Assembly (NCBI GenBank): GCA_965208105.1 | Contig: OZ242318.1 | Span: forward strand, 3,360,001 to 3,424,000 | Direction: 5' to 3' | DNA: 64,000 nucleotides | Source of the DNA: Candidatus Latescibacterota bacterium | GTDB taxonomy: Bacteria > Latescibacterota > UBA2968 > UBA8231 | Shown here: positions 5,299 through 36,683 of the stretch, piece after piece | Layout of the letters: the number at the start of each line of letters is the position of its first letter | Position numbering within the stretch: position 1 is the first letter of the stretch | Notes under the pieces: generated by a model | Told to the model about the DNA's origin: nothing | Database searches by the model: none | What the model saw: only the letters and a program-made list of their open reading frames with translations | Position numbers and translations under genes: made by a program

Positions 5299-5889
5299 AT
5301 GACTCGTTCCAATTTGCACCATATGGCATGGGTTGCCGCCCTGACCTTCGCTCTTGCCGCCGAGACGGCGTTGGCGGAAACCTACGTGGTCGATGCATCC
5401 CACTCTTCGGTCGATTTCAGCATCCGCCACCTGGTCGGCCGCACGAAGGGCCGTTTCGGTGACTTCAGCGGAACCATCGGCTACGACGCCGCCAAGCCCG
5501 AATCCTCCACCTTCTCCGGCATCATTCAGGTCAAGAGCATCGACACGGGCAACGAACGCCGCGACGGCCACCTGCAAAGCGTCGACTTTTTCGAAGCCGA
5601 AACCTATCCAACCATCACCCTCGAATCTACCGAGGTGACCAGCACGGGCGATAACACCCTCAGCGTGAAGGGCAAGCTGACCATGCACGGCACCACCAGG
5701 GAGGTCACGCTGCTGGTCGAGATCCTCGGCACCGGCACCAACCCGCGCAGCGGCAAGGCGCAGATCGGCCTGGAAACCAACTTCACCCTTCTCTGCTCCG
5801 ACTACGGAGTCAATAGCTGGGCACGCTTCAGCGCGGTTCTCGGGGACGAAGTGAAAATTCAGGTGCTGATCGAGGCCAACGCGGAGTAA
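5299..5889 (+). CDS. YceI family periplasmic protein
   Basis: Signal peptide, YVVDASHSSVDFSIRH, SIDTGNERRDGHL, GKLTMHG; AGGAGG RBS. Confidence 0.93.
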   Translation: MTRSNLHHMAWVAALTFALAAETALAETYVVDASHSSVDFSIRHLVGRTKGRFGDFSGTIGYDAAKPESSTFSGIIQVKSIDTGNERRDGHLQSVDFFEAETYPTITLESTEVTSTGDNTLSVKGKLTMHGTTREVTLLVEILGTGTNPRSGKAQIGLETNFTLLCSDYGVNSWARFSAVLGDEVKIQVLIEANAE

Positions 5890-27720: not shown

Positions 27721-28863
27721 CTACTCCACCCCTAGCAACCGCGCCGCGGTGCCTCCCATTATCTGCGCCAGCTCCCCGGCGTCGAGTCCGGACCATTGCG
27801 CGAAGGGGACCTCGACCCACCTGCGCGACTGGCGGTAGGTGCAGAAGCGGTTCTGGAACGGCATGTCGGTGCCCCAGAGAAGGTGATCGGCGCCGATATG
27901 TTCCACCATCGCGGCCAGGGTCGGCCACACTTCGCGGTAGGGATAGTCGAAGATGTCCCCCAGGCGCACGGGGAAGCACACCTCGACGTGGCAGTTCCCT
28001 CCGGTGAACGGCTCCCATATCTCCTCCGGCAAGGCGATGGCTTTCTTCTCGTCGTCGAGGAAGGTGCGCCAGGGGAAGCCGTGGGTCAGGCTGCACACCG
28101 CCTCGGGATAGCGCTCCATCCAGCGCATGAGGATGCGGTGCTCGCCGAGATAGCCGCGCTGCTCCTCGCGGCTGGAACGCCGGCCGCCCTCGAGGTCGCC
28201 GGGGCCGGCGCCCAGGGTGAAGAAGACGGGCACCCCGAGGCCGGTCACGGCCTCCCAGAACGGGCGGTAGGGACCGTCGTCCCAAGCCTGGTCGCCGGCA
28301 AGGTAGCACAGTGGAGGAATGAACTTGACCGCGTGGAGCCCGTCCTTCTCGACCGCGCCGACGGTTTCGGCGATCACGGTGTCGGTCTCGGCGATGATGC
28401 GCCACTCGTCCACCGGGGCCATGGAGAAGATGCGCCCGGGAAACCTCCTCACGATCTCCCCCAGGTACGAACTGTCGCGCACCAGCGCCGGATCGGTGTG
28501 GAGCAGGACCGCGTCCACCCCGGCGTGGTGCATCTCACAGTCGAGCCCGAAGGGGGTGAACTCCGCACCGCGCAGATTCGGCGGCAGGAAGTACTTGGTG
28601 TACTCCCGGCCCTCCCAGGTCCACAGCGCCCGGCCCCTCGCCTTGTCCACGCGGAAACCCAGGTCTGGAAGGCGGTCGAGGTCGCGGGTTCCCCCGGGGT
28701 CGAGAACATCGGAAGGTCCCACCCTTCCGTCGGCAATGCGCAGGGCGGGCTGGTGGTGGGTGGCGTGGGCGACCTGGACCCAGCGCATGTGCTCCTCGCT
28801 GGAGGCGTAGCCCCGGGGACCGTCGAGGGGCTCGAAGCAGTAGGCATGAGAGTCGAGGATCAC
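27721..28863 (-). CDS. Amidohydrolase family protein
   Basis: ILDSHAY, LLWGTDMP, IMGGTAARL; GTGA overlap with the upstream gene. Confidence 0.85.
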   Translation of the reverse strand: MILDSHAYCFEPLDGPRGYASSEEHMRWVQVAHATHHQPALRIADGRVGPSDVLDPGGTRDLDRLPDLGFRVDKARGRALWTWEGREYTKYFLPPNLRGAEFTPFGLDCEMHHAGVDAVLLHTDPALVRDSSYLGEIVRRFPGRIFSMAPVDEWRIIAETDTVIAETVGAVEKDGLHAVKFIPPLCYLAGDQAWDDGPYRPFWEAVTGLGVPVFFTLGAGPGDLEGGRRSSREEQRGYLGEHRILMRWMERYPEAVCSLTHGFPWRTFLDDEKKAIALPEEIWEPFTGGNCHVEVCFPVRLGDIFDYPYREVWPTLAAMVEHIGADHLLWGTDMPFQNRFCTYRQSRRWVEVPFAQWSGLDAGELAQIMGGTAARLLGVE

Positions 28864-29309
28864 GGCTGTTCGGCCACGTCGTCCTTGAAGACACCGCAGT
28901 GCAGCATGGCCCCGCCGAAGTAGGGATTCATCACGGTCCCCTTCTTCTGGATCCAGTGGGCCCCCTGGGCTTCGTTGGCCATCGGGCAGAATGCAAGGCC
29001 GTAGCCCTGGGGAATCTCTCCTTTGGCCATTTGATCCGAAATGGCGATGAAGGCGCTGCGGAGGGCTTCAATTTCATCGGCGGCGGCGGCCTGGGAAGCC
29101 AGCATCGCAATCTCCTCGGAGCCGTGCTCCTGAAGATCCGCCAGGGCCATGCGGGCTTCGTCCAGATGGTCTCCGGCCAGGGCCTCCTGGACGGCGATAT
29201 AGGCGGTGAAATCGGCGCTTTGAACGGGAGGTACTGTCTGCGCACTTTCTCCGCATCCGATCCAGACAAAGCTCAAACTGCACGCGGCGGCTATGAGATA
29301 CTTTTTCAT
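28860..29309 (-). CDS. DUF3347-like metal-binding lipoprotein
   Basis: YIAVQEALAGD, CPMA, NPYFGGAMLHCG; AAGGAGGAG RBS. Confidence 0.85.
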   Translation of the reverse strand: MKKYLIAAACSLSFVWIGCGESAQTVPPVQSADFTAYIAVQEALAGDHLDEARMALADLQEHGSEEIAMLASQAAAADEIEALRSAFIAISDQMAKGEIPQGYGLAFCPMANEAQGAHWIQKKGTVMNPYFGGAMLHCGVFKDDVAEQP

Positions 29310-29413: not shown

Positions 29414-32400
29414 TCAAGCACGGCGCCAGGCTTCCCGCCAGCGCAGCTTCTGCTCCTCGACGGCGCAGTAGAGCACCGGAACCATCTGCATGGTGAACAC
29501 GGTTAGGACCATGCCGCCGAAGGTGGGGATGGCCATGGGCACCATGATATCGGCTCCTCTCCCGGAGGCGGTGAGCACCGGCAGCAGCGCCAGGATTGTG
29601 GTGGCCACGGTCATCAGGCAGGGCCGCACCCGGTGCACCCCCGCCTCCAGGGCAGCGCGGCGGATGGCCTCCCGGGTGGACGGCTGCTGCCGGGAGAAGA
29701 TCTGGCGCAGGTAGGTGGCGGTGATGACGCCGTTGTCCGAGGCAATTCCGAAAAGTGCGAGAAAACCCACCCACACGGCCACGCTCAGATTTATCGGCTC
29801 GACCTGGAACAGGGCGCGCATGGAGGTGCCGAACACCGAAAAGTCCAGAAACCAATCCTGGCCATAGAGCCAGATCATGATGAAGCCTCCGGACCAGGCC
29901 ACCAGGATGCCCGAGAAGACCAGCATGGTGGCCGGGACGTTTTTGAACTGAAAGTAGAGGATCAAGAAAATAGTAAGCAGGGCGAGCGGCAATACCACCC
30001 GCAGGCGCTCCTGGGCCCGCACTGGTTTTCGTAGCTGCCGGCGAAGACGTAGCTGACTCCGGCCGGCAGGTCCAGTTCGCCGCCCGAGATTCTGGCCTCC
30101 AGCTCGGCCCGGCATGCTTCCACCACGTCCACCTCGGCGTAGCCCTCCTTCTTGTCGAACAGCACATAGCCCACCAGGAAGGTGTCCTCGCTCTTGATGA
30201 CCTGCGGACCCCGAACATAGCGGATCTGCGCCAGCTGCCCCAGGGGGATCTGGGCTCCGTCGGGGGTGGCCACCAGTATGCGGCCCAGCGACTCCATGGT
30301 GTCGCGCAGCTCGCGCATGTAGCGCACCCGGACCGGATAGCGCTCCCGGCCTTCCACCGTGGTCGTGATGCGCTGGCCGCCGATGGCCACCTCGACGACC
30401 TGCTGCACCCGCTGCAGGGGAATGCCGTAGCGGGCAATGGCCTCGCGGTCGACGGCGATCTCCAGGTAGGGCTTGCCGACTATGCGGTCGGCGTTGACCG
30501 ACGAGGGTTCCACCGAGGGGACCTGCTTGACCAGCTGCTCGATCCGCAGGCCCACTTCTTCAATGGTCTCCAGGTCGGGACCCCTGATTTTGATGCCCAT
30601 GGGGGCCCTCATGCCGCTTTGCAGCATCACGAGCCGGGCTGCGATGGGCTGCAGCCTGGGTGCCGAGGTGGTGCCCGGAAGCTCCGCCGCAGTGACGATC
30701 TGCTGCCAGATGTCGTCCGGGTCGCGGATGCCCGCCCATGGCCGCCTGTCCTCGTTCAACGCCGGGTCCAGGGGCGGGCGCCAGAGGCGGAACGGCCGTC
30801 CCTCGGAGTCGGGGATCAGGCGGCCCTCGCTGTCCCGGGCAAAGCGGCCCCGTACCCGGTAGGGTCGTCCGTCCGCCGCCGGAAGGGGTGTTCCGTCTTC
30901 CGCCCGGAACCAGTCGGGGGTATCCGGCTCGAAGCGAAAGGTCGCCGGCCGGCCGCGCGCGTCGGGCAGGTACTCGGGCCGGTAGTTGATCACGGTTTCG
31001 AACATTGAGATGGGCGCGGGGTCCAGGGCGGTTTCGGCGCGTCCCAGCTTCCCCACCACCGTTTCCACCTCGGGCAGCCCGCTGATGGCCTTGTCCTGCT
31101 TCTGCAGCACGTCGAGGGCCTCCCCAATGGAGGCGTGCGGCATGGTGGTGGGCATGAATAGAAAGGAACCCTCGTCCAGGGGCGGCATGAACTCCTTGCC
31201 CAGGCCGGGGAACTGATGGGCCATGAAGGACAGCGGCCGCGAGGAGACGGGCAGCCACCCGAACAGGCGGTCGAACCCGAGCCAGACCGAGGCGCCCCAG
31301 ATCAGCGCCAGGAGCGGAAACGACACGGCCGCCGCCTTGTGGTCCAGGCACCAGCGCAGGATTGCAGGGTAGGCCCGCTGAAACAGGGCAAAGGCACCCA
31401 GGAGGCCGCCCAGCAGCAAAACCACGAAGAGGAAATTGCGCGGGGTGCCCTGCTCCTGCCCGAGGGGCAGCCAGCGGCCTGCGAGGAACCCGGCCACCAG
31501 CAAGGCGGTCAGACCGATACCCAGGTGCGGCATCCAGCGGCGAACAGCCTCCGGGATCCATGGCGCGGTCAGATGATAAATGCCGGTGCCGGTCAGGAGA
31601 ATGGCCGCCCACCACGGCAGGACTGCAAGGGACGACAACCCCGCAAGGGTCAGTCCCGCGTAGAGTAAACGCCGTACCATGAGGCGTCGCAGGCCGGGGG
31701 CGAAGAGGAGATGGGCGAGGGCGGGCAGAGCGGTCAGGGCCAGGAGAATGGCCGCGACCAGGGCGAAGGTCTTGGTGTATGCAAGGGGTTTGAAGAGCTT
31801 GCCCTCGGCGCCTTCCATGGCGAAGACCGGTAAAAAGCTCACTACGGTGGTGGCCACCGCGGTCAATACGGCTCCTCCCACTTCGGATGCGGCGCGCAGC
31901 ACGACCTCCAGCGCGTCCTCGTCCTCACTCCTTCTTTCGAGATGGCGTAGAATGTTTTCGGAAAGGACCACACCCATATCCACCATGGTGCCGATGGCGA
32001 TGGCGATTCCGGAAAGGGCGACGATATTTGCGTCCACCGCGAAGATTCTCATGGCGATGAAGCACATCAGCACCGCGAGGGGCAGGAGCCCCGAGATGAG
32101 CGCGGCGCTGCGGAAATGGGCGACCATCACCAGAATGACCGCGATGGTGACCAGAATCTCCTCCTCCAGGGCCTTGTCGAGGGTGCCCAGGGTCTCTTCG
32201 ATCAGCCCGGTGCGGTCATAGAACGGAACCACCGTCACCTGGCTGGTCCGCCCGTCGGAGAGGGTCTTGCGCGGCAGGCCCGGGGCTATCTCGGCGATCT
32301 TGTCCTTCACGTTCCCGATTACCTCGAGCGGATTGGCGCCGTATCGCGCCACCACGACTCCACCCACGGCCTCGGCCCCTTCCTTGTCGAGAGCGCCGCG

Positions 32401-33285
32401 CCGCAGGGCAGGACCCCTGGCCACGGTGGCGACGTTTTTCACGTAGACCGGCACATGGTCGCGGGCGGCGACCACCGCATTTTCGATATCCTTCTGGCTC
32501 TTGACGAATCCGACGCCGCGGATGACGTACTCCACCCGGTTTATCTCGATGGTGCGGGCGCCCACGTCGCGGTTGGCCATGCGCACCGCATCGAAGACCT
32601 GCTCGATGGACACGCCGAAGGCGCGCATGGCGTCCGGGTCCACGTCGATCTGGTACTCCTGCACGAAGCCGCCCACCGAGGCCACCTCGCTCACTCCCTG
32701 GGCCCCCATCAGGGCGTAGCGCACCTGCCAGTCCTGGATGGAACGCAGCTCGTGCAGGTCCCAGCCCCCGGTGGGACGCCCGCTCCGGTCGCGGCCTTCG
32801 AGAGTGTACCAGAAGATTTGCCCGAGGGCGGTGGCGTCGGGCCCCAGGGCCGGCTGCACCTCGGCGGGCAGGGTCCCGGGGGGCAGGCTGTTGAGCTTTT
32901 CCAGCACCCGGGAGCGGGACCAGTAGAAGTCGACCTCCTCGTCGAAAATGATGTAGAGGTTCGAGAGGCCGAACATGGAGTAGCTGCGCACGGTCCTGAC
33001 CCCCGGGACGCCCAGCAGGGCAACCGTCAGGGGGTAGGTTATCTGGTCCTCCACGTCCTGGGGGGAGCGCCCCGTCCACGCGGTTGAGACGATCTGCTGG
33101 TTCTCGCCGATATCGGGGATGGCATCCACCGGAACCGGGTCGCGCGGGAACCCGGCGATGCGCCAATCGAAGGGCGCGACCATCGTCCCCCACAGGCCGA
33201 TGGCGGCGAGTATCAGAATCACGACCAGCTTGTTCTCGATGAAGAAACGCAGTGGCCGTTCCAGGAGAGAGGTCGAGTCGGTCAT
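29414..33285 (-). pseudogene. cusA: CusA/CzcA heavy-metal RND permease with a 1-nt frameshift near 30022 (pseudogene or read error)
   Basis: VDAIPDIGENQ, GPDATALG, GTMVD, EFMPPLDEG; C-terminal helices (RVRPCLMT) lie in another frame. Confidence 0.85.
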
Positions 33286-34796
33286 GGCCGGTGCCCCTCC
33301 TGGTCATGGCCGGCAGAGGGGGCTCCCTCCTCAGGCTCCCGGTGTTCTCCGTGGTGGTGGTGGACCGGGGGAGGGCCGCCGCCCTCGGGGTTCATCATGC
33401 TGGGGCGCGCTAGAATCTGCAGGGCGCTGTCGATCTTGAAGTTGCCCTCGACCACGACCTCCTCGCCGGCGGCCAGCCCCTCGTGGATCACGTAGAAATC
33501 GCCCGCCCGAGGTCCCAGGACCACTTCGCGGCCCTCGTAGAGGCCCGACTTCCCGGCGACGGCTACGTACACCACCGCCCGCTCGCCGGTCTGCAGCACG
33601 GCCGAAGCGGGAACCACCAGCGGATCCTGGACCGCTGCCGGCTCCCCGGCCAGACCCAGGGCCTCGGCCGGCTCCAGGTCCATGCCGCACACGGGACAGG
33701 AGCCCGGCTCGTCCCGCACGATCTCCGGGTGCATCGGGCTGATCCACTTGCCGGCCAGTGAGGGAGCGGCGGCGCGGCCGTGGGCCGATACCTGGGCGTA
33801 GGCCACGGCGCGGGCGAACAACCCCGGTTTGAGCCGTGCCCGGGTGTTGTCCACGTCCACCCGCACGGTGACCGTGCGGGTGGGCTCGTCTAGGAACGGA
33901 GAGACGAAGGAGACCCGGCCGCTGAAAACCTCCCCGGGATGGGCGGGCGTGGTAAACCGCACTTCCTGGCCGTAGTGGATCCAGGGCAGGTCAGACTCGT
34001 AGGCGGCCAGCTCGAGCCAGACCCTGTCCAGGTCGGCAAGGGTATAGATGCGGGTCCCGGTCTGCACGTAGGCGCCCTCGTTGACGTGCTTGTCCACCAC
34101 CGTGCCGCCGACCGGTGAGTATATGGTCAGGTGGTCGGAGGGCTGCCGGCTCTGTTCGATGGCGGCGATCTGGCCGGGGGTCAGGCCCCACAGTTGCAGC
34201 CTGTCCCGGGCCGCGGCGGCCGTGGCCAGTCCTGCGGGCCCCAGTGCCTCGGCTCCCGCAAGTGCCTGGATCAACTCCTGCTGGGCGGCCAGCAGCTCGG
34301 GACTGTAGATATAGACCATGTGGTCGCCCGGCTCCACGGCCACCCCGGTGTAGTCGACGTAGAGCCGGTCGATGCGTCCGGGCACCCAGGCGGTGACGTA
34401 CTTGAGCCTGGTTTCGTCATAGGAGATCTTGCCCACCATGCGGGTCTCCACCTGCACCGGCCGGCGTTCCACCGGCGCCAGCCGCAAAGCGGCCAGGCGC
34501 CGCGCCGTCTCCGACAGCTCCAGCTGCCGCGGTCCGAGGTCGTCCCGGGCGCCGGGCATTGCCACCGGGATGAGGTCCATGGCGCAAATCGGGCATTGCC
34601 CCCGGTTGGGCAGGCGGATCTGCGGGTGCATGGAGCAGGTCCAGACCTGGGCGGTTTGCGCCGGGATTTCTTCGTCCGGAGGTGTCCCGCGGCTGCTCAG
34701 ACCCGAGCCCGCGATCAGCCCCGCGACCCCTGCACCCACCACGAGCGATATCCAGCTCATCGTCTTTCTATTCAAGCGGAATTTCATCGGAAGCAT
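33282..34796 (-). CDS. cusB: CusB-like membrane fusion protein with heavy-metal-binding domains
   Basis: WTCSMHPQI...[16 protein letters not shown]...[19 protein letters not shown], His-rich tail. Confidence 0.9.
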
Positions 34797-34799
34797 CCT

Positions 34800-36122
34800 T
34801 CATTTCGGATTGGGCGGGGCGAGCCGTCCGCCGGTGAGGAGGTCGATCTCGGCCCGGCGGCGGGCGTGGTCGGCCAGGGCCCGTTCTTGCGCCAGTTGGA
34901 ATTGAAGCCGCAGCCGTTGGGCGTCGATCAGGTCGAGGAAGGAGCCCGTGCCGGCGGCAAATGCCTGTCGAGTCACGTCGAGAGCCTGCTCGGCCCGGGG
35001 CAGCAAGCTGTCCCGGTAGAGGTCGATCTTGCGCCGGCTGTCGTGCCAATGGTAGAGGGCAAGCTGCAGACGAGCGCCCAACTGGTTTTCAATTTCCCTG
35101 CGCTCCAGCTCGGCGGCGTTCTGCCGCGCCCGCGCCTGCCGCACTCCGGCCCTGTACTGGCTCCGGTCCAGGGGCAGGTTCAGCGAGAGCATGGCAACCA
35201 GGGGGTCCCTGCCCTCGGCCGCGACGGGGTCGGCGGCCTCCCGCCCGCTGGTGGCGATATAGTCGAAGCTCAATGTCCAGGAGGGATATCCTTCCTTTTG
35301 GGCCCTTTCCACCGCGGCCCGGGAGCGCTCGATTTCAAAGTCGTGGGCGCGCAGGTCCGGATGGCCCTCCAGGACGAACTGGTCGGGCAGGGGCGGCACC
35401 GGAGGGAGTTCGACGACGAAGGAAACGGCGGCCCCCGCGGGCCGGTCGAGCGCCGCGTTCAAGCGTGTCCGTACCGGGGTCCTGCGGTCCCGGAGGCTTT
35501 GCAGTTCGTCCGCCAGCTTGCCGAGTTCCATCTGGATCTTGAGCACGTCGGCCTGCGATCCCCGGCCCGTGCGGTAGTTGGCCCGGGCAACCTTCTCCAG
35601 GGAGTTGAGCCATTGCAGGTTGCTTGTCTGGATTGCGATGGCGCGCTCCAGGTAGTAGAGCTCGTAGTAGGCGCTTTCGACCTGGAATACGAGATCGAGG
35701 CGGGCGGCTTCGTAGCGCTGCCGGGCGGCCTGGGCAGCCGCGGTTCTCATCTTCCCCTGCAGAGCCAGGCGGCCGAACCAGGGGAAGGTCTGGGCAAGGC
35801 CCAGTCGCCACTCCTGGGGTCCCACCCTGGTCTCCACGGGGCGGACAAAATAGCCGGCTGCCAATCGAGGGTCGGGCCGGGCCCTGGCCGGGGCGATGCC
35901 TTCGAGGTGGGCCTGCCATTTCTCGAAGGCCGCCCGGATGCCCGGATTGTTTGCCAGGGCGTAGGCGACGTATTCTTCCAGCCCCGGATCGCCCTCGAGA
36001 ACGAGGTCTTGCCCGGCCTCGGCCTGCCGGTCTCCCCGGGCAAGGAGCTGGAGAGGCGAACCCGTTGCGGCTGCCGTTAGAAAGAGCCAGACCGGCAACC
36101 ACGCGATACGAACGTACTGCAT
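34800..36122 (-). CDS. TolC/CusC family outer-membrane efflux protein
   Basis: ALANNPGI, QTFPWFGRL, FLDLIDAQR; sits upstream of cusB/cusA. Confidence 0.9.
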   Translation of the reverse strand: MQYVRIAWLPVWLFLTAAATGSPLQLLARGDRQAEAGQDLVLEGDPGLEEYVAYALANNPGIRAAFEKWQAHLEGIAPARARPDPRLAAGYFVRPVETRVGPQEWRLGLAQTFPWFGRLALQGKMRTAAAQAARQRYEAARLDLVFQVESAYYELYYLERAIAIQTSNLQWLNSLEKVARANYRTGRGSQADVLKIQMELGKLADELQSLRDRRTPVRTRLNAALDRPAGAAVSFVVELPPVPPLPDQFVLEGHPDLRAHDFEIERSRAAVERAQKEGYPSWTLSFDYIATSGREAADPVAAEGRDPLVAMLSLNLPLDRSQYRAGVRQARARQNAAELERREIENQLGARLQLALYHWHDSRRKIDLYRDSLLPRAEQALDVTRQAFAAGTGSFLDLIDAQRLRLQFQLAQERALADHARRRAEIDLLTGGRLAPPNPK

Positions 36123-36128
36123 TGAAGG

Positions 36129-36215
36129 CCTCCTCCCTGTAAGGATGGAAAGGTGTAGTACCAGGCAGGGGCATTGGCCCCGGAGGGCAGCCCCTGGAGT
36201 GAACAGGGAAAGAGG
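36129..36215 (-). promoter_or_regulatory. SD-sequestering stem in front of the tolC-like gene
   Basis: Transcript CCUCUUUCCCUGU (36215-36203) can pair with ACAGGGAGGAGG (36140-36129), which contains the SD. Confidence 0.65.
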
Positions 36216-36218
36216 GGT

Positions 36219-36605
36219 TTAAATCAGGTAGGAATGGTGCAGCAGGTAGAGCGGCGGGGAACCGGCGCGGTCCGCACCGCCGGGCGGGATGGGAGCAGGC
36301 CGGTGAGGAGCGGATGCATGGGCTGGACGGAAGCCGGAGTCCCTGGCTCCCTGCTGCTTGACCGGTTGGTCGGAAGCGGCAAAGCCGAGGAGGGGCGCCT
36401 GGCCGGGAGCGGAGATGCACTCACTGGCCGCGCAGCAACATCCCTGCTGCTGCAGGGCGGAAGGCGCAGGTGGGGGGTCGGCCTGGTGGCAGGCCGGCTG
36501 CTCCGCAACCTCTAGCCGGCAGGGCGCACACGCCCATCCGAAGGCGCCCTGAGCCGCCAGATTGATCAGCAGGAAACAAAGTAGAAAGACGCGCAGTGCG
36601 CCCAT
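36219..36605 (-). CDS. Cys/Pro-rich putative metal-responsive leader protein (128 aa)
   Basis: Signal-like N-terminus, CAPC, CH, CCC, C-terminus RAGSPPLYLLHHSYLI; GGAGG RBS. Confidence 0.75.
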   Translation of the reverse strand: MGALRVFLLCFLLINLAAQGAFGWACAPCRLEVAEQPACHQADPPPAPSALQQQGCCCAASECISAPGQAPLLGFAASDQPVKQQGARDSGFRPAHASAPHRPAPIPPGGADRAGSPPLYLLHHSYLI

Positions 36606-36654
36606 GGCTGTAGCTTTCCTCCAGCGGCCGTCAACACTCGGTAGACTGCAGGTG

Positions 36655-36683
36655 AATATCACGGGTTCCCGGCAAAGTGTCAA
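36655..36683 (-). promoter_or_regulatory. Sigma70-type promoter of the metal-efflux operon
   Basis: TTGACA-N17-GATATT on the minus strand. Confidence 0.6.

Follow-up and report, generated by a model that had tools for sequence, protein, structure and literature searches.

We put at roughly one half the probability that a 128-codon open reading frame (P0001), situated before a heavy-metal RND efflux operon, acts in cis as a CutF/CruR-type leader gene. All of the elements that the initial annotation had described for this ORF and operon were found in place on the minus strand of the window (the whole stretch of 64,000 nucleotides that was analysed). In the three loci that carry the leader ORF (the window and two related loci, L001 and L002), it sits directly upstream of the pump gene and on the same strand. 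The genes and the signals 5' of the leader are as follows.

36683..36655, minus strand: sigma-70-like promoter, TTGACA-17-GATATT, 10 of 12 matches; both hexamers kept in L001 and L002
36618..36622, minus strand: GGAGG Shine-Dalgarno (SD) of the leader ORF, 12 nt 5' of the leader ATG; TGGAG conserved in all three loci
36605..36219, minus strand: leader ORF P0001, 128 aa plus stop; homologues, dN/dS 0.34-0.48, no Pfam or NCBIfam match
34800..36122, minus strand: outer-membrane efflux protein (OEP) gene, TolC/CusC-like, 440 aa; Pfam OEP, E = 2.4e-50
33282..34796, minus strand: periplasmic adaptor of the CusB/CzcB type, carrying two heavy-metal-binding domains; Pfam matches HMBD (two stretches) and HlyD_D23, NCBIfam matches RND_mfp, CzcB/NccB and CusB
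29962..33285, minus strand: CusA/CzcA-family heavy-metal RND transporter, 1107 aa; Pfam ACR_tran, NCBIfam TIGR00914 at 644 bits, under its 701-bit cut-off

The promoter is the sigma70 site that had already been read 5' of the 128-aa ORF, and the 1.2-kb region holds two promoter-like sites where 0.1 would be expected from shuffled sequence. Between the leader ORF and the OEP gene lies a spacer of 96 nt, in which no intrinsic terminator was found. A terminator-like match at 36603-36587 falls within the first codons of the ORF and is probably due to chance. Rfam supplied no name for the leader ORF or the spacer, and its single match (plus strand, E = 0.58) was set aside as chance. A simple pattern search of the RND transporter for a transmembrane signature of metal specificity gave no match. 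No transcription factor gene was found within about 10 kb of the operon, and therefore the leader could be the operon's main metal-responsive control. Three parts of the leader bear on such a role.

36537..36605, minus strand: codons 1-23, a positive start, hydrophobic helix and small-residue end, resembling a signal peptide or membrane anchor (hydropathy, AlphaFold2)
36417..36530, minus strand: cysteine cluster region C26xxC29, C39-H40, C56-C57-C58 and C63, invariant in 6 of 6 family proteins
36222..36260, minus strand: conserved tail S116-I128 (SPPLYLLHHSYLI), the last 13 codons (family alignment, three DNA copies)

Homologues of the leader are few and uniform in length. Four share 77-92% identity, every one of them 128 aa long, and a profile search of 1.84 billion representatives added one further cluster (127 aa, 46% identity); widening the family with a 13-sequence profile returned only 11 proteins, all of them query members or their close relatives. 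The six-sequence alignment holds 46 invariant columns, among them eight Cys and 10 of the last 13 residues, so that the tail is conserved in the homologues, a point that the initial annotation had proposed to check. The signal-like N-terminus, the CAPC/CH/CCC motifs and the Pro-rich stretch noticed earlier are likewise present. The N-terminus has R5, then a 13-residue hydrophobic core and then small residues at A-F-G, with a hydropathy of 2.05-2.72 over residues 1-17. The cysteines of C26-A-P-C29 are the same in all six sequences, with the Pro replaced by Arg in P0007, and C39-H40 and C56-C58 are also unchanged throughout. The middle of the protein is rich in Pro and Ala and its C-terminal end reads RAGSPPLYLLHHSYLI. 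Within the tail, S-P-P (the Pro-Pro being P117-P118) is invariant (6/6) at 10 residues before the last residue and is preceded by RAG in four of the six sequences. AlphaFold2 modelled the leader with a mean pLDDT of 50 and a helix at residues 2-20 as the only confident part; the ESM Atlas model has a pLDDT of 0.50. The body beyond the N-terminal helix is thus predicted to be disordered.

At the DNA level, the dN/dS of the leader ORF is 0.34, 0.48 and 0.47 for the three DNA pairs and lies between 0.2 and 0.7 in every segment, with the middle third the least constrained (0.55-0.70 against the window copy). Synonymous differences occur in four codons of the tail among the three DNA copies. Judged by its homologues and these substitution patterns, the ORF is a real conserved coding sequence, and its tail is conserved as a peptide. 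Codon usage in the ORF is atypical, with a score of -0.11 compared with +0.25 to +0.48 for six Pfam-supported genes and a GC3 of 0.73 compared with 0.81-0.89 for the same six. A candidate second leader copy in L001 (tblastn 444-725, E = 0.005-0.015) was rejected, as it lies within an iron-alcohol-dehydrogenase gene and in another frame.

The spacer that follows the leader stop codon contains the RNA elements on which the proposed control would depend.

36203..36215, minus strand: anti-SD arm CCUCUUUCCCUGU, 13 nt, starting 4 nt after the stop codon (36221-36219); CCTCTTTCCC identical in all three loci
36166..36196, minus strand: inner hairpin with a 7-bp stem (36196-36190 with 36172-36166) and a 4-bp apical stem (minimum-energy fold)
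36129..36140, minus strand: SD region of the OEP gene, ACAGGGAGGAGG, which forms the 3' side of the helix, 6 nt 5' of the ATG at 36122

The initial annotation had drawn an anti-SD helix of about 12 bp with one bulge and one G-U, and the minimum-energy fold of 36240-36100 returns it with 6+6 bp, a single bulged U and one G-U. The same fold confirms the inner stem that had been placed between 36166-36172 and 36190-36196. Its energy is -45.5 kcal/mol (z = -2.82), and one of 200 shuffles was as stable. In the window, the first 20 nt after the stop codon are expected to form 11.8 pairs with the SD window, while dinucleotide shuffles of the 5' spacer average 2.4; the native value was reached by 0 of 300 shuffles for the window and by 1 and 2 of 300 for the two related loci. 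In each of the three loci, both the minimum-energy fold and the centroid fold contain the SD-sequestering helix, with z = -2.71 for the L001 fold and -0.97 for that of L002. The inner hairpin is also kept in L001 and L002, with an apical stem of GCCC/GGGC in the window, GCCG/CGGC in L001 and GCCGU/ACGGU in L002. In L002 the SD has changed from GGGAGGAG to GGAAAGAU, which has better complementarity to the unchanged anti-SD, and the base of the helix is altered on both sides (UGU/ACA to GUCUA/UAGAC) with pairing kept. The window and L001 share 77 of 96 spacer positions as compared with 58% identity at synonymous sites (pS 0.416). The covariation of the stem that had been suggested as a check was borne out in part: the changed pairs keep pairing in both related loci, but RNAalifold on the three loci counts 1 of 20 pairs as compensatory (covariation term +1.67). 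The covariation rests on few events because only three DNA sequences carry the element and two of these are closely related.

These pairings have to be read against the composition of the spacer, which has 38 C and 21 G in its 96 nt in the window. This C-richness leaves the SD largely paired in shuffled sequences too (9.2 of 12 nt), and the specific feature is the pairing partner beside the stop codon, not the pairing of the SD itself. Duplex energies between the stop region and the ribosome-binding site (RBS) were unexceptional against other 40-nt windows of the same locus, with p = 0.19 in the window, 0.29 and 0.054 in the other two of the three loci. The same test in 16 loci, against other windows of each, gave empirical p values of 0.04-0.88 and no overall signal.

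The anti-SD:SD helix sets the leader stop codon and the pump start codon at its two ends. In the mechanism that we favor, the SD of the pump gene would be occluded in the resting state. A ribosome at the leader stop codon would cover roughly the first 10 post-stop nucleotides, which make up the CCUCUU half of the anti-SD that holds GGAGG, and therefore translation to the end of the leader would free the SD. Any dwell at that position would lengthen the time for which the SD is open. The nascent chain may be exported co-translationally and, with C63 located 65 residues from the C-terminus, all of the cysteine motifs could therefore be outside the membrane with the tail still in the tunnel. A soft metal (Cu(I), Ag(I) or a similar ion) on the cysteines could then alter the force that pulls on or folds the chain, and thereby how long the ribosome dwells at the tail. 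With its Pro-Pro 10-11 residues from the last, the conserved tail would act inside the exit tunnel at or next to termination, in contrast to RAPP or PPP motifs, which act at the peptidyl-transferase centre. Metal sensing and ribosome arrest by the leader are the steps that we infer; what speaks for sequence-specific arrest is indirect, namely a tail whose peptide sequence persists through synonymous changes and recurs across phyla.

Where the ribosome would have to stand was explored with a mask model. A ribosome at the second Pro codon, 33 nt 5' of the stop, leaves the SD opening energy in the window almost unchanged (14.9 vs 15.6 kcal/mol), in agreement with the earlier argument that the Pro-Pro is too distant for a ribosome stalled there to reach the anti-SD. 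Since the conserved 10-residue hydrophobic tail comes after the Pro-Pro, a ribosome stalled on the Pro-Pro would be about 18 nt short of the stop codon. With the ribosome placed at the stop codon, the SD opening energy drops by 5.4 kcal/mol in the window, 0.1 in L001 and 4.5 in L002, and the freed SD can re-pair in the model with other pyrimidine-rich stretches. The equilibrium model gives an ambiguous answer for a ribosome in this position; the modelled footprint geometry fits opening of the SD helix from there.

Cys-rich small ORFs precede related pump genes in Planctomycetota, Verrucomicrobiota and Calditrichia as well, and only the tail is common to them and the leader. Profile alignment recovers this segment alone (16 columns, end to end, E = 5.2e-5, probability 67%), and the last Pro of these ORFs is often exactly 10 residues from the end. 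Pairing between the stop region and the RBS was not significant in 13 distant loci with analogous ORFs (per-locus p 0.07-1.0 from minimum-energy folds and shuffles). Five of the 13 have 8-14 such pairs (p about 0.07-0.11 each), three have none, and the combined value for all 13 (Fisher, by hand) is also not significant at p about 0.09. A much bolder proposal can be built on the tail, and we consider it rather unlikely: that [S/G]-P-P-x10-stop, hydrophobic and usually ending in L-I, would be an unrecognised arrest module that works at or next to termination with its prolines some 10 residues back in the tunnel and not at the catalytic centre. The module would recur in small exported Cys-rich leaders before heavy-metal RND operons of four or more phyla (Latescibacterota, Planctomycetota, Verrucomicrobiota and Calditrichia), would lie outside Pfam DUF2946 and would serve as the primary, transcription-factor-free metal sensor of the pump.

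Several of the observations above could also be accommodated if the leader were a mature protein. A dN/dS below 1 over the whole ORF is also expected of a functional mature protein, and purifying selection in every segment, together with eight invariant cysteines that include a CCC cluster, would suit a periplasmic or membrane-attached metal-binding accessory of the pump, such as a metallochaperone or a protein resembling CzcI. In homologous pump loci elsewhere, the equivalent position holds further small periplasmic proteins that bind metal (e.g., L007, L019, L020 and L039). The helix would then provide only constitutive translational coupling or mRNA stabilisation with no metal-dependent arrest; any ribosome that finishes the leader would open it, with no need to stall. 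An accessory protein is harder to reconcile with the predicted disorder outside the N-terminal helix and with a middle third that is the least constrained part of the ORF. The segment that recurs across phyla is moreover 13-16 residues long and ends exactly at the stop codon, and a conserved stretch ending at the stop codon is typical of tunnel-acting peptides. The CutF and CruR products themselves are reportedly undetectable or short-lived, according to PMC9973294 and PMC9426467. On balance, an accessory role strikes us as somewhat unlikely. The N-terminal hydrophobic helix could instead be an uncleaved anchor, which would be compatible with a trans-acting regulator (a membrane sensor or an anti-sigma-like partner) beside which the RNA helix is incidental, and PMC9973294 places CzcI, found upstream of czcCBA, among the CutF-like proteins and suggests a metal-sensing regulatory role for it. 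With no partner regulator gene nearby, a helix that is conserved with changed pairs and an ORF kept directly upstream on the same strand in 3 of 3 loci, we regard trans action as very improbable.

Two further explanations concern the spacer. Rho-dependent polarity, by which CruR works in the excerpts of PMC9426467, would make the C-rich spacer a Rho loading site, with ribosome occupancy at the leader end or pump start deciding transcription. The spacer is indeed C-rich and G-poor in the three loci (C/G 38/21, 37/19 and 34/20) and no intrinsic terminator was reported in it, but much of it is predicted to be base-paired, which would disfavor Rho loading. We find polarity as the main control improbable, and it is compatible with the SD-occlusion model and not exclusive of it. 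Finally, the leader ORF and helix could be chance features of a GC-rich, pyrimidine-rich spacer. The atypical codon usage, the SD that is mostly paired in shuffles too and the unexceptional duplex energy all point in this direction, but the frame stays 127-128 aa long even at 46% identity, dN/dS is below 0.5, conservation extends to the promoter, start codon, tail and anti-SD, and 0-2 of 300 shuffles reach the post-stop:SD pairing. We give coincidence next to no credence. The reading of the ORF as a cis-acting leader is the one that we carry forward.

To our knowledge, CutF and CruR, both DUF2946 proteins from Pseudomonadota, are the only nascent exported peptides shown to control metal efflux. 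The present locus has the CutF/CruR layout in a poorly studied, uncultured lineage, with a peptide that escapes the family model. It differs in an anti-SD position that is accessible only to a ribosome on the very last part of the leader and in a distinct conserved tail that recurs across phyla. Should the tail be an arrest signal, it would be a new sequence class among the small set of known arrest peptides, and trans-membrane metal sensing by nascent chains would reach RND pumps well beyond Proteobacteria. Should it not be, a conserved small gene that standard family models leave unnamed is an annotation target in its own right.

Among characterized systems, the arrest peptides SecM (SecM-secA) and TnaC resemble the proposal made here in having a conserved C-terminal peptide that acts within the ribosome tunnel, with the paused ribosome exposing an RNA element downstream. 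In TnaC the arrest occurs at the stop codon, and the key residues lie about 12 positions before it. Neither peptide has sequence similarity to the leader, and the signal proposed here is extracytoplasmic metal, not secretion activity or tryptophan. SecM-secA is described as an arrest peptide in the excerpts of bioRxiv 10.1101/2025.02.05.636593. CzcI of Cupriavidus metallidurans is likewise a small ORF that immediately precedes a czcCBA-type RND metal efflux operon; compared by description only, it reportedly lacks a C-terminal proline motif (PMC9973294, excerpts). CruR of Bordetella pertussis, the DUF2946 prototype, shares with the leader its position as an upstream ORF, a CXXC, a proline motif near the C-terminus and a predicted exported, poorly structured product, and it controls its downstream gene after transcription start (PMC9426467, excerpts). 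The leader has the CXXC of DUF2946 (C26-A-P-C29), but its S-P-P is 10 residues back where the proline motif of the family is a few residues from the C-terminus (RAPP at three in CruR), and its cysteine-to-proline spacing is 87 (C29-P117) or 53 (C63-P117) residues where the excerpts of PMC9426467 give about 45 from CXXC to RAPP, conserved in the family within one or two. CruR further differs in acting via Rho termination, with copper relieving arrest, and in targeting a TonB-dependent importer where the leader precedes an efflux pump (PMC9426467, excerpts). Searches for DUF2946 (PF11162) or any other Pfam family gave no match for P0001 at E <= 0.01, for five family members at E <= 10 or for the L001 and L002 copies at E <= 1, and NCBIfam gave none for the leader at E <= 0.1. 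By these profile searches, and by its motif spacing and proline position, the leader is not a member of Pfam DUF2946. ESM Atlas neighbours named DUF2946 were discarded, as their TM scores of 0.28-0.33 are too low to be useful.

The closest parallel is CutF of the Rhodobacter capsulatus cutFOG locus, for which a stem-loop and ribosome-stalling mechanism is described in PMC9973294 and bioRxiv 10.1101/2025.02.05.636593. The initial annotation had argued for CutF-type logic, and the leader and spacer architecture agrees with that system as these sources present it: an ORF of fewer than 150 aa that directly precedes a metal-detoxification gene on the same strand, a hydrophobic segment of export type at the N-terminus, metal-binding cysteine motifs, PP within the last 15 residues, a product predicted to be unstructured and a short spacer of about 100 nt whose stem-loop masks the downstream SD. 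The leader fits the rule-based filter for CutF-like genes given in PMC9973294 in its 128 aa, P117-P118, 96-nt spacer and same-strand OEP gene, and its N-terminus may be the cleavable Sec signal peptide, predicted by SignalP, that the filter also asks for, or an uncleaved anchor. CutF differs in a C-terminal PPP stall, where the leader has PP and then a conserved 10-residue hydrophobic tail; in CxxxC, where the leader has CxxC, CH, CCC and C; and in a downstream multicopper oxidase, where an outer-membrane efflux protein is found here. The leader in addition lacks a DUF2946 HMM match and its host is a Latescibacterota-like bacterium. An efflux-pump target had been put forward as a departure from the known systems, which it is not: RND outer-membrane efflux proteins are the most frequent downstream neighbours of CutF-like genes in PMC9973294, and for this reason the target is not new. 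In arrangement the leader resembles the copper-sensing CutF and CruR genes, but its conserved tail is different.

The leader ORF and the pump genes occupy the minus strand in the following arrangement, listed with their neighbors:

36683-36655, minus strand: sigma-70-like promoter (TTGACA-17-GATATT), upstream of the leader ORF
12 nt upstream of the leader ATG, minus strand: GGAGG
36605-36219, minus strand: leader ORF, 128 codons
starting 96 nt downstream of the leader ORF, minus strand: outer-membrane efflux protein, 440 aa (Pfam OEP)
33282-34796, minus strand, next after the OEP gene: CusB/CzcB-like adaptor with two heavy-metal-binding domains
after the adaptor gene, minus strand: CusA/CzcA-family RND transporter
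within ~10 kb, divergent: ribose-phosphate pyrophosphokinase gene (prs)
within ~10 kb: oxidoreductase, acetyltransferase, lactate-racemase-like protein and iron alcohol dehydrogenase genes
downstream side: amidohydrolase and TonB-dependent receptor genes

The initial annotation had described a promoter, a cysteine-containing leader ORF and a helix over the Shine-Dalgarno (SD) region of the outer-membrane efflux gene, and that description was accurate in every detail checked. Housekeeping and metabolic genes make up the flanks (~10 kb each side), and the iron alcohol dehydrogenase, lactate-racemase-like, acetyltransferase, oxidoreductase and prs genes are syntenic between the window and the related locus L001. 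The two heavy-metal-binding repeats of the adaptor (33282-34796, minus strand) read C-x-M-H-P ... C-P-x-C, and its C-terminal end is His-rich. On the strand of the RND gene and ~650 nt past it (28860-29309, minus) lies a gene, possibly the fifth of the operon, for a predicted lipoprotein of 149 aa with CPM and HC motifs; its match to DUF3347 is weak and falls below the cut-off (E = 0.0088). A terminator-like hairpin with a T-run (36587-36603, minus strand) within the leader's first ten codons is probably due to chance, with two such sites found against 1.1 expected.

On sequence evidence, the leader ORF is a real gene. Its product begins MGALR followed by a 13-residue hydrophobic core, carries the motifs C26-A-P-C29, C39-H40, C56-C57-C58 and C63, and passes through a Pro/Ala-rich middle to the C-terminal end RAGSPPLYLLHHSYLI. 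Four homologs, each 128 aa and 77-92% identical, came from a word-indexed search over 5.8 billion proteins; when 1.84 billion cluster representatives were searched exhaustively by profile, only two clusters emerged, the second of 127 aa and 46% identity. The six-sequence alignment has 46 invariant columns, among them eight cysteines and 10 of the 13 C-terminal residues. When genome contigs were searched with the adjacent outer-membrane protein as query, 52 loci were obtained, and the leader ORF is present in just the two closest, directly upstream of the OEP gene in both; these loci, L001 and L002, come from MAGs labeled Candidatus Latescibacterota and have OEP identities of 83% (the best found) and 71%. 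Among the three DNA copies, dN/dS is 0.34, 0.48 and 0.47, with its minimum in the N-terminal half and its maximum in the middle. Codons S116, L122, H124 and I128 of the tail (S116-I128) differ synonymously with the residue kept, so the tail is conserved as a peptide. Codon usage, however, is atypical: compared with six Pfam-supported genes, GC3 is 0.73 (theirs 0.81-0.89) and the codon score -0.11 (theirs +0.25 to +0.48). The protein has no match among Pfam or NCBIfam models, permissive thresholds included. AlphaFold2 (13-row alignment) gave a mean pLDDT of 50 with residues 2-20 as the sole helix, and the ESM Atlas model is similar.

The RNA beyond the leader stop folds onto the pump SD. In the minimum-energy fold of 36240-36100, 36215-36203 (CCUCUUUCCCUGU) pairs with 36140-36129 (ACAGGGAGGAGG), giving an anti-SD:SD helix of 6+6 bp with one bulged U that encloses a hairpin at 36196-36166. 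The window fold has z = -2.82 and was equaled by 1 of 200 shuffles; L001 has the same fold (z = -2.71) and L002 the same architecture with a weak z of -0.97. Expected pairs between the first 20 nt past the stop and the SD window number 11.8, 10.8 and 8.9 in the window, L001 and L002, and when the 5′ part of the spacer was dinucleotide-shuffled, 0, 1 and 2 of 300 trials, respectively, reached the native pairing. The SD is largely paired in shuffles too because the spacer is C-rich, and a plain duplex-energy comparison of the stop region with the ribosome-binding site was unexceptional. The comparative evidence comes from three sequences only: the ten bases CCTCTTTCCC are unchanged in all of them, and the SD changes from GGGAGGAG to GGAAAGAU in L002, so that a G-U becomes an A-U and the formerly bulged U is paired. 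The helix base is altered in both arms in L002 (UGU/ACA to GUCUA/UAGAC), and the apical stem of the inner hairpin reads GCCC/GGGC in the window, GCCG/CGGC in L001 and GCCGU/ACGGU in L002. Spacer identity between the window and L001 is 77/96, compared with 58% at synonymous sites; with L002 it is 52/101, which does not exceed the identity at synonymous sites. Of 20 pairs, RNAalifold (MAFFT alignment) counted only 1 as compensatory.

The spacer itself (36123-36218) is C-rich and G-poor (38 C and 21 G of 96 nt), as are its L001 and L002 counterparts, with a 22-nt G-free stretch immediately before the SD, a composition like that of a Rho loading site. By eye, the last leader codons (36222-36233, UCCUACCUG) possibly pair with the SD (CAGGGAGGA) over 8 bp with one mismatch and could form a second anti-SD-like stretch within the coding tail. 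Synonymous divergence of the tail is low between the window and L001 (dS 0.18, from ~13 sites only, versus 0.61 for the whole ORF).

A ribosome with a stop codon in its A site covers ~10 nt past the stop. From this footprint geometry, a ribosome at the leader stop would cover the CCUCUU half of the anti-SD, and one stalled on the second Pro codon would have its edge ~18 nt before the stop, leaving the anti-SD out of reach. In a mask model, the energy needed to open the SD region in the window is 15.6 kcal/mol without a ribosome; it drops to 10.2 when the stop is occupied and to 14.9 when P117-P118 is, which bears out the earlier concern that a ribosome stalled at the prolines is too far away. 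The model gives 8.7 free versus 4.2 with a ribosome at the stop for L002 and 13.05 versus 12.96 for L001, essentially unchanged because the freed SD re-pairs elsewhere. Geometry and model together favor a tail whose action would come at termination or immediately adjacent to it, while the prolines sit in the tunnel. The last cysteine is 65 residues from the C-terminus, so by analogy with CutF the cysteines would already have been exported, and in that position they could sense metal.

This locus has both a conserved, translated leader and a conserved helix linking stop-proximal RNA to the pump SD, and the initial observation as a whole is confirmed. A working accessory metal-binding protein with constitutive coupling is the likeliest of the alternatives, though still rather doubtful. 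Rho-dependent polarity through the C-rich spacer is improbable. A trans-acting regulator seems slightly less probable again, and no two-component, MerR-type or ArsR-type regulator occurs among the genes within ~10 kb on either side. Chance, next to the recurrence of leader and helix in L001 and L002, is very hard to credit.

Features like those of the leader recur at more distant pump loci. In the loci for which a start could be assigned, we looked at ORFs whose ends fall shortly before the outer-membrane gene, and by eye 18 of the 52 loci have a small ORF there with a hydrophobic N-terminus and cysteine clusters (L001, L002, L016, L017, L026, L028, L029, L031, L034, L036, L037, L038, L040, L043, L044, L045, L050 and L051), labeled Latescibacterota, Verrucomicrobiota, Planctomycetota, Calditrichia and others; the other loci have different upstream genes or a contig edge. 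Thirteen distant small ORFs scanned against Pfam gave no meaningful family match. Fourteen of the 18 were aligned with the window's protein, omitting L045 (a near-duplicate of L043) and L028, L034 and L037 (differing ends). The last proline lies exactly 10 residues before the C-terminal residue in 9 of these 15 sequences; the nine represent ~6 independent lineages, three of them being from the window's clade and two (L038 and L044) from one contig; example tails among the aligned ORFs are SPPKYLLNLALLI, GPPLQLIYQVFLI and GPPIFLLNSVLLR. When the profile of the window's family is compared with that of the distant set, just the last 16 columns align, end to end (E = 5.2e-5, probability 67%), which points to the tail as a module common to several phyla. 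If the P-x10-stop tail is truly a distinct arrest module, the finding gains interest. In minimum-energy folds of L026, L036, L040, L050 and L051, the ribosome-binding site downstream is paired with the final codons or the stop region of the leader; shuffle p values for these five are only ~0.07-0.11 per locus, three loci lack such pairs, and no significance is reached when the signal is combined.

Several of these loci have peculiarities of their own. Between its Cys-rich small ORF and its outer-membrane gene, L038 has an extra 67-aa ORF (5577-5780) with a heavy-metal-binding motif; the counterpart in the paralogous L044, on the same Planctomycetota contig, looks degenerate (~5745-5800). At both loci, pairing is predicted between the final codons of the small ORF and the region where the intermediate ORF starts. 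L017 (5753-5790) and L029 (5707-5745) have in common a conserved stretch, GATTCTGCGCGCTG, ~20 nt past the small ORF's stop, which may be a separate RNA or DNA element. By eye, the leader position in L007, L019, L020 and L039 holds another small periplasmic protein, which is His-rich at its end and has C-P-x-M-G-G and C-C-x-x-C motifs; in L013, L015, L027 and L009 it holds a sigma factor, response regulator or NikR-like gene.

Both CutF and CruR belong to DUF2946 and combine a signal peptide with a cysteine motif and, at the C-terminus, a proline motif (PMC9973294; bioRxiv 10.1101/2025.02.05.636593; PMC9426467). Periplasmic copper binding by CutF leads to a stall at PPP and melting of a stem-loop over the cutO SD (PMC9973294; bioRxiv 10.1101/2025.02.05.636593). 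CruR arrests at RAPP, three residues from its end, and controls Rho termination; the CXXC-to-RAPP spacing of 45 residues is conserved in its family (PMC9426467). A literature search on leader ORFs of heavy-metal RND operons returned PMC9973294 as the sole relevant match. That source lists 5,334 CutF-like proteins, chiefly from Pseudomonadota and Bacteroidota, and the gene most often found downstream of them encodes the outer-membrane protein of an RND metal efflux system. The initial annotation had extended the CutF and CruR logic to this locus with an efflux pump as the distinguishing target; that interpretation is partly supported, and an efflux target is already known for CutF-like genes (PMC9973294). 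In contrast to DUF2946 proteins such as CutF and CruR, the window's ORF fails the HMM and differs in motif spacing and motif position. The broader class of CutF-like proteins is defined by rules: a length of <150 aa, PP among the 15 C-terminal residues, a signal peptide, and a neighbor on the same strand within 1000 nt (PMC9973294). The window's ORF agrees with the length, PP and neighbor rules, and its hydrophobic N-terminus may be a signal peptide or an uncleaved anchor.
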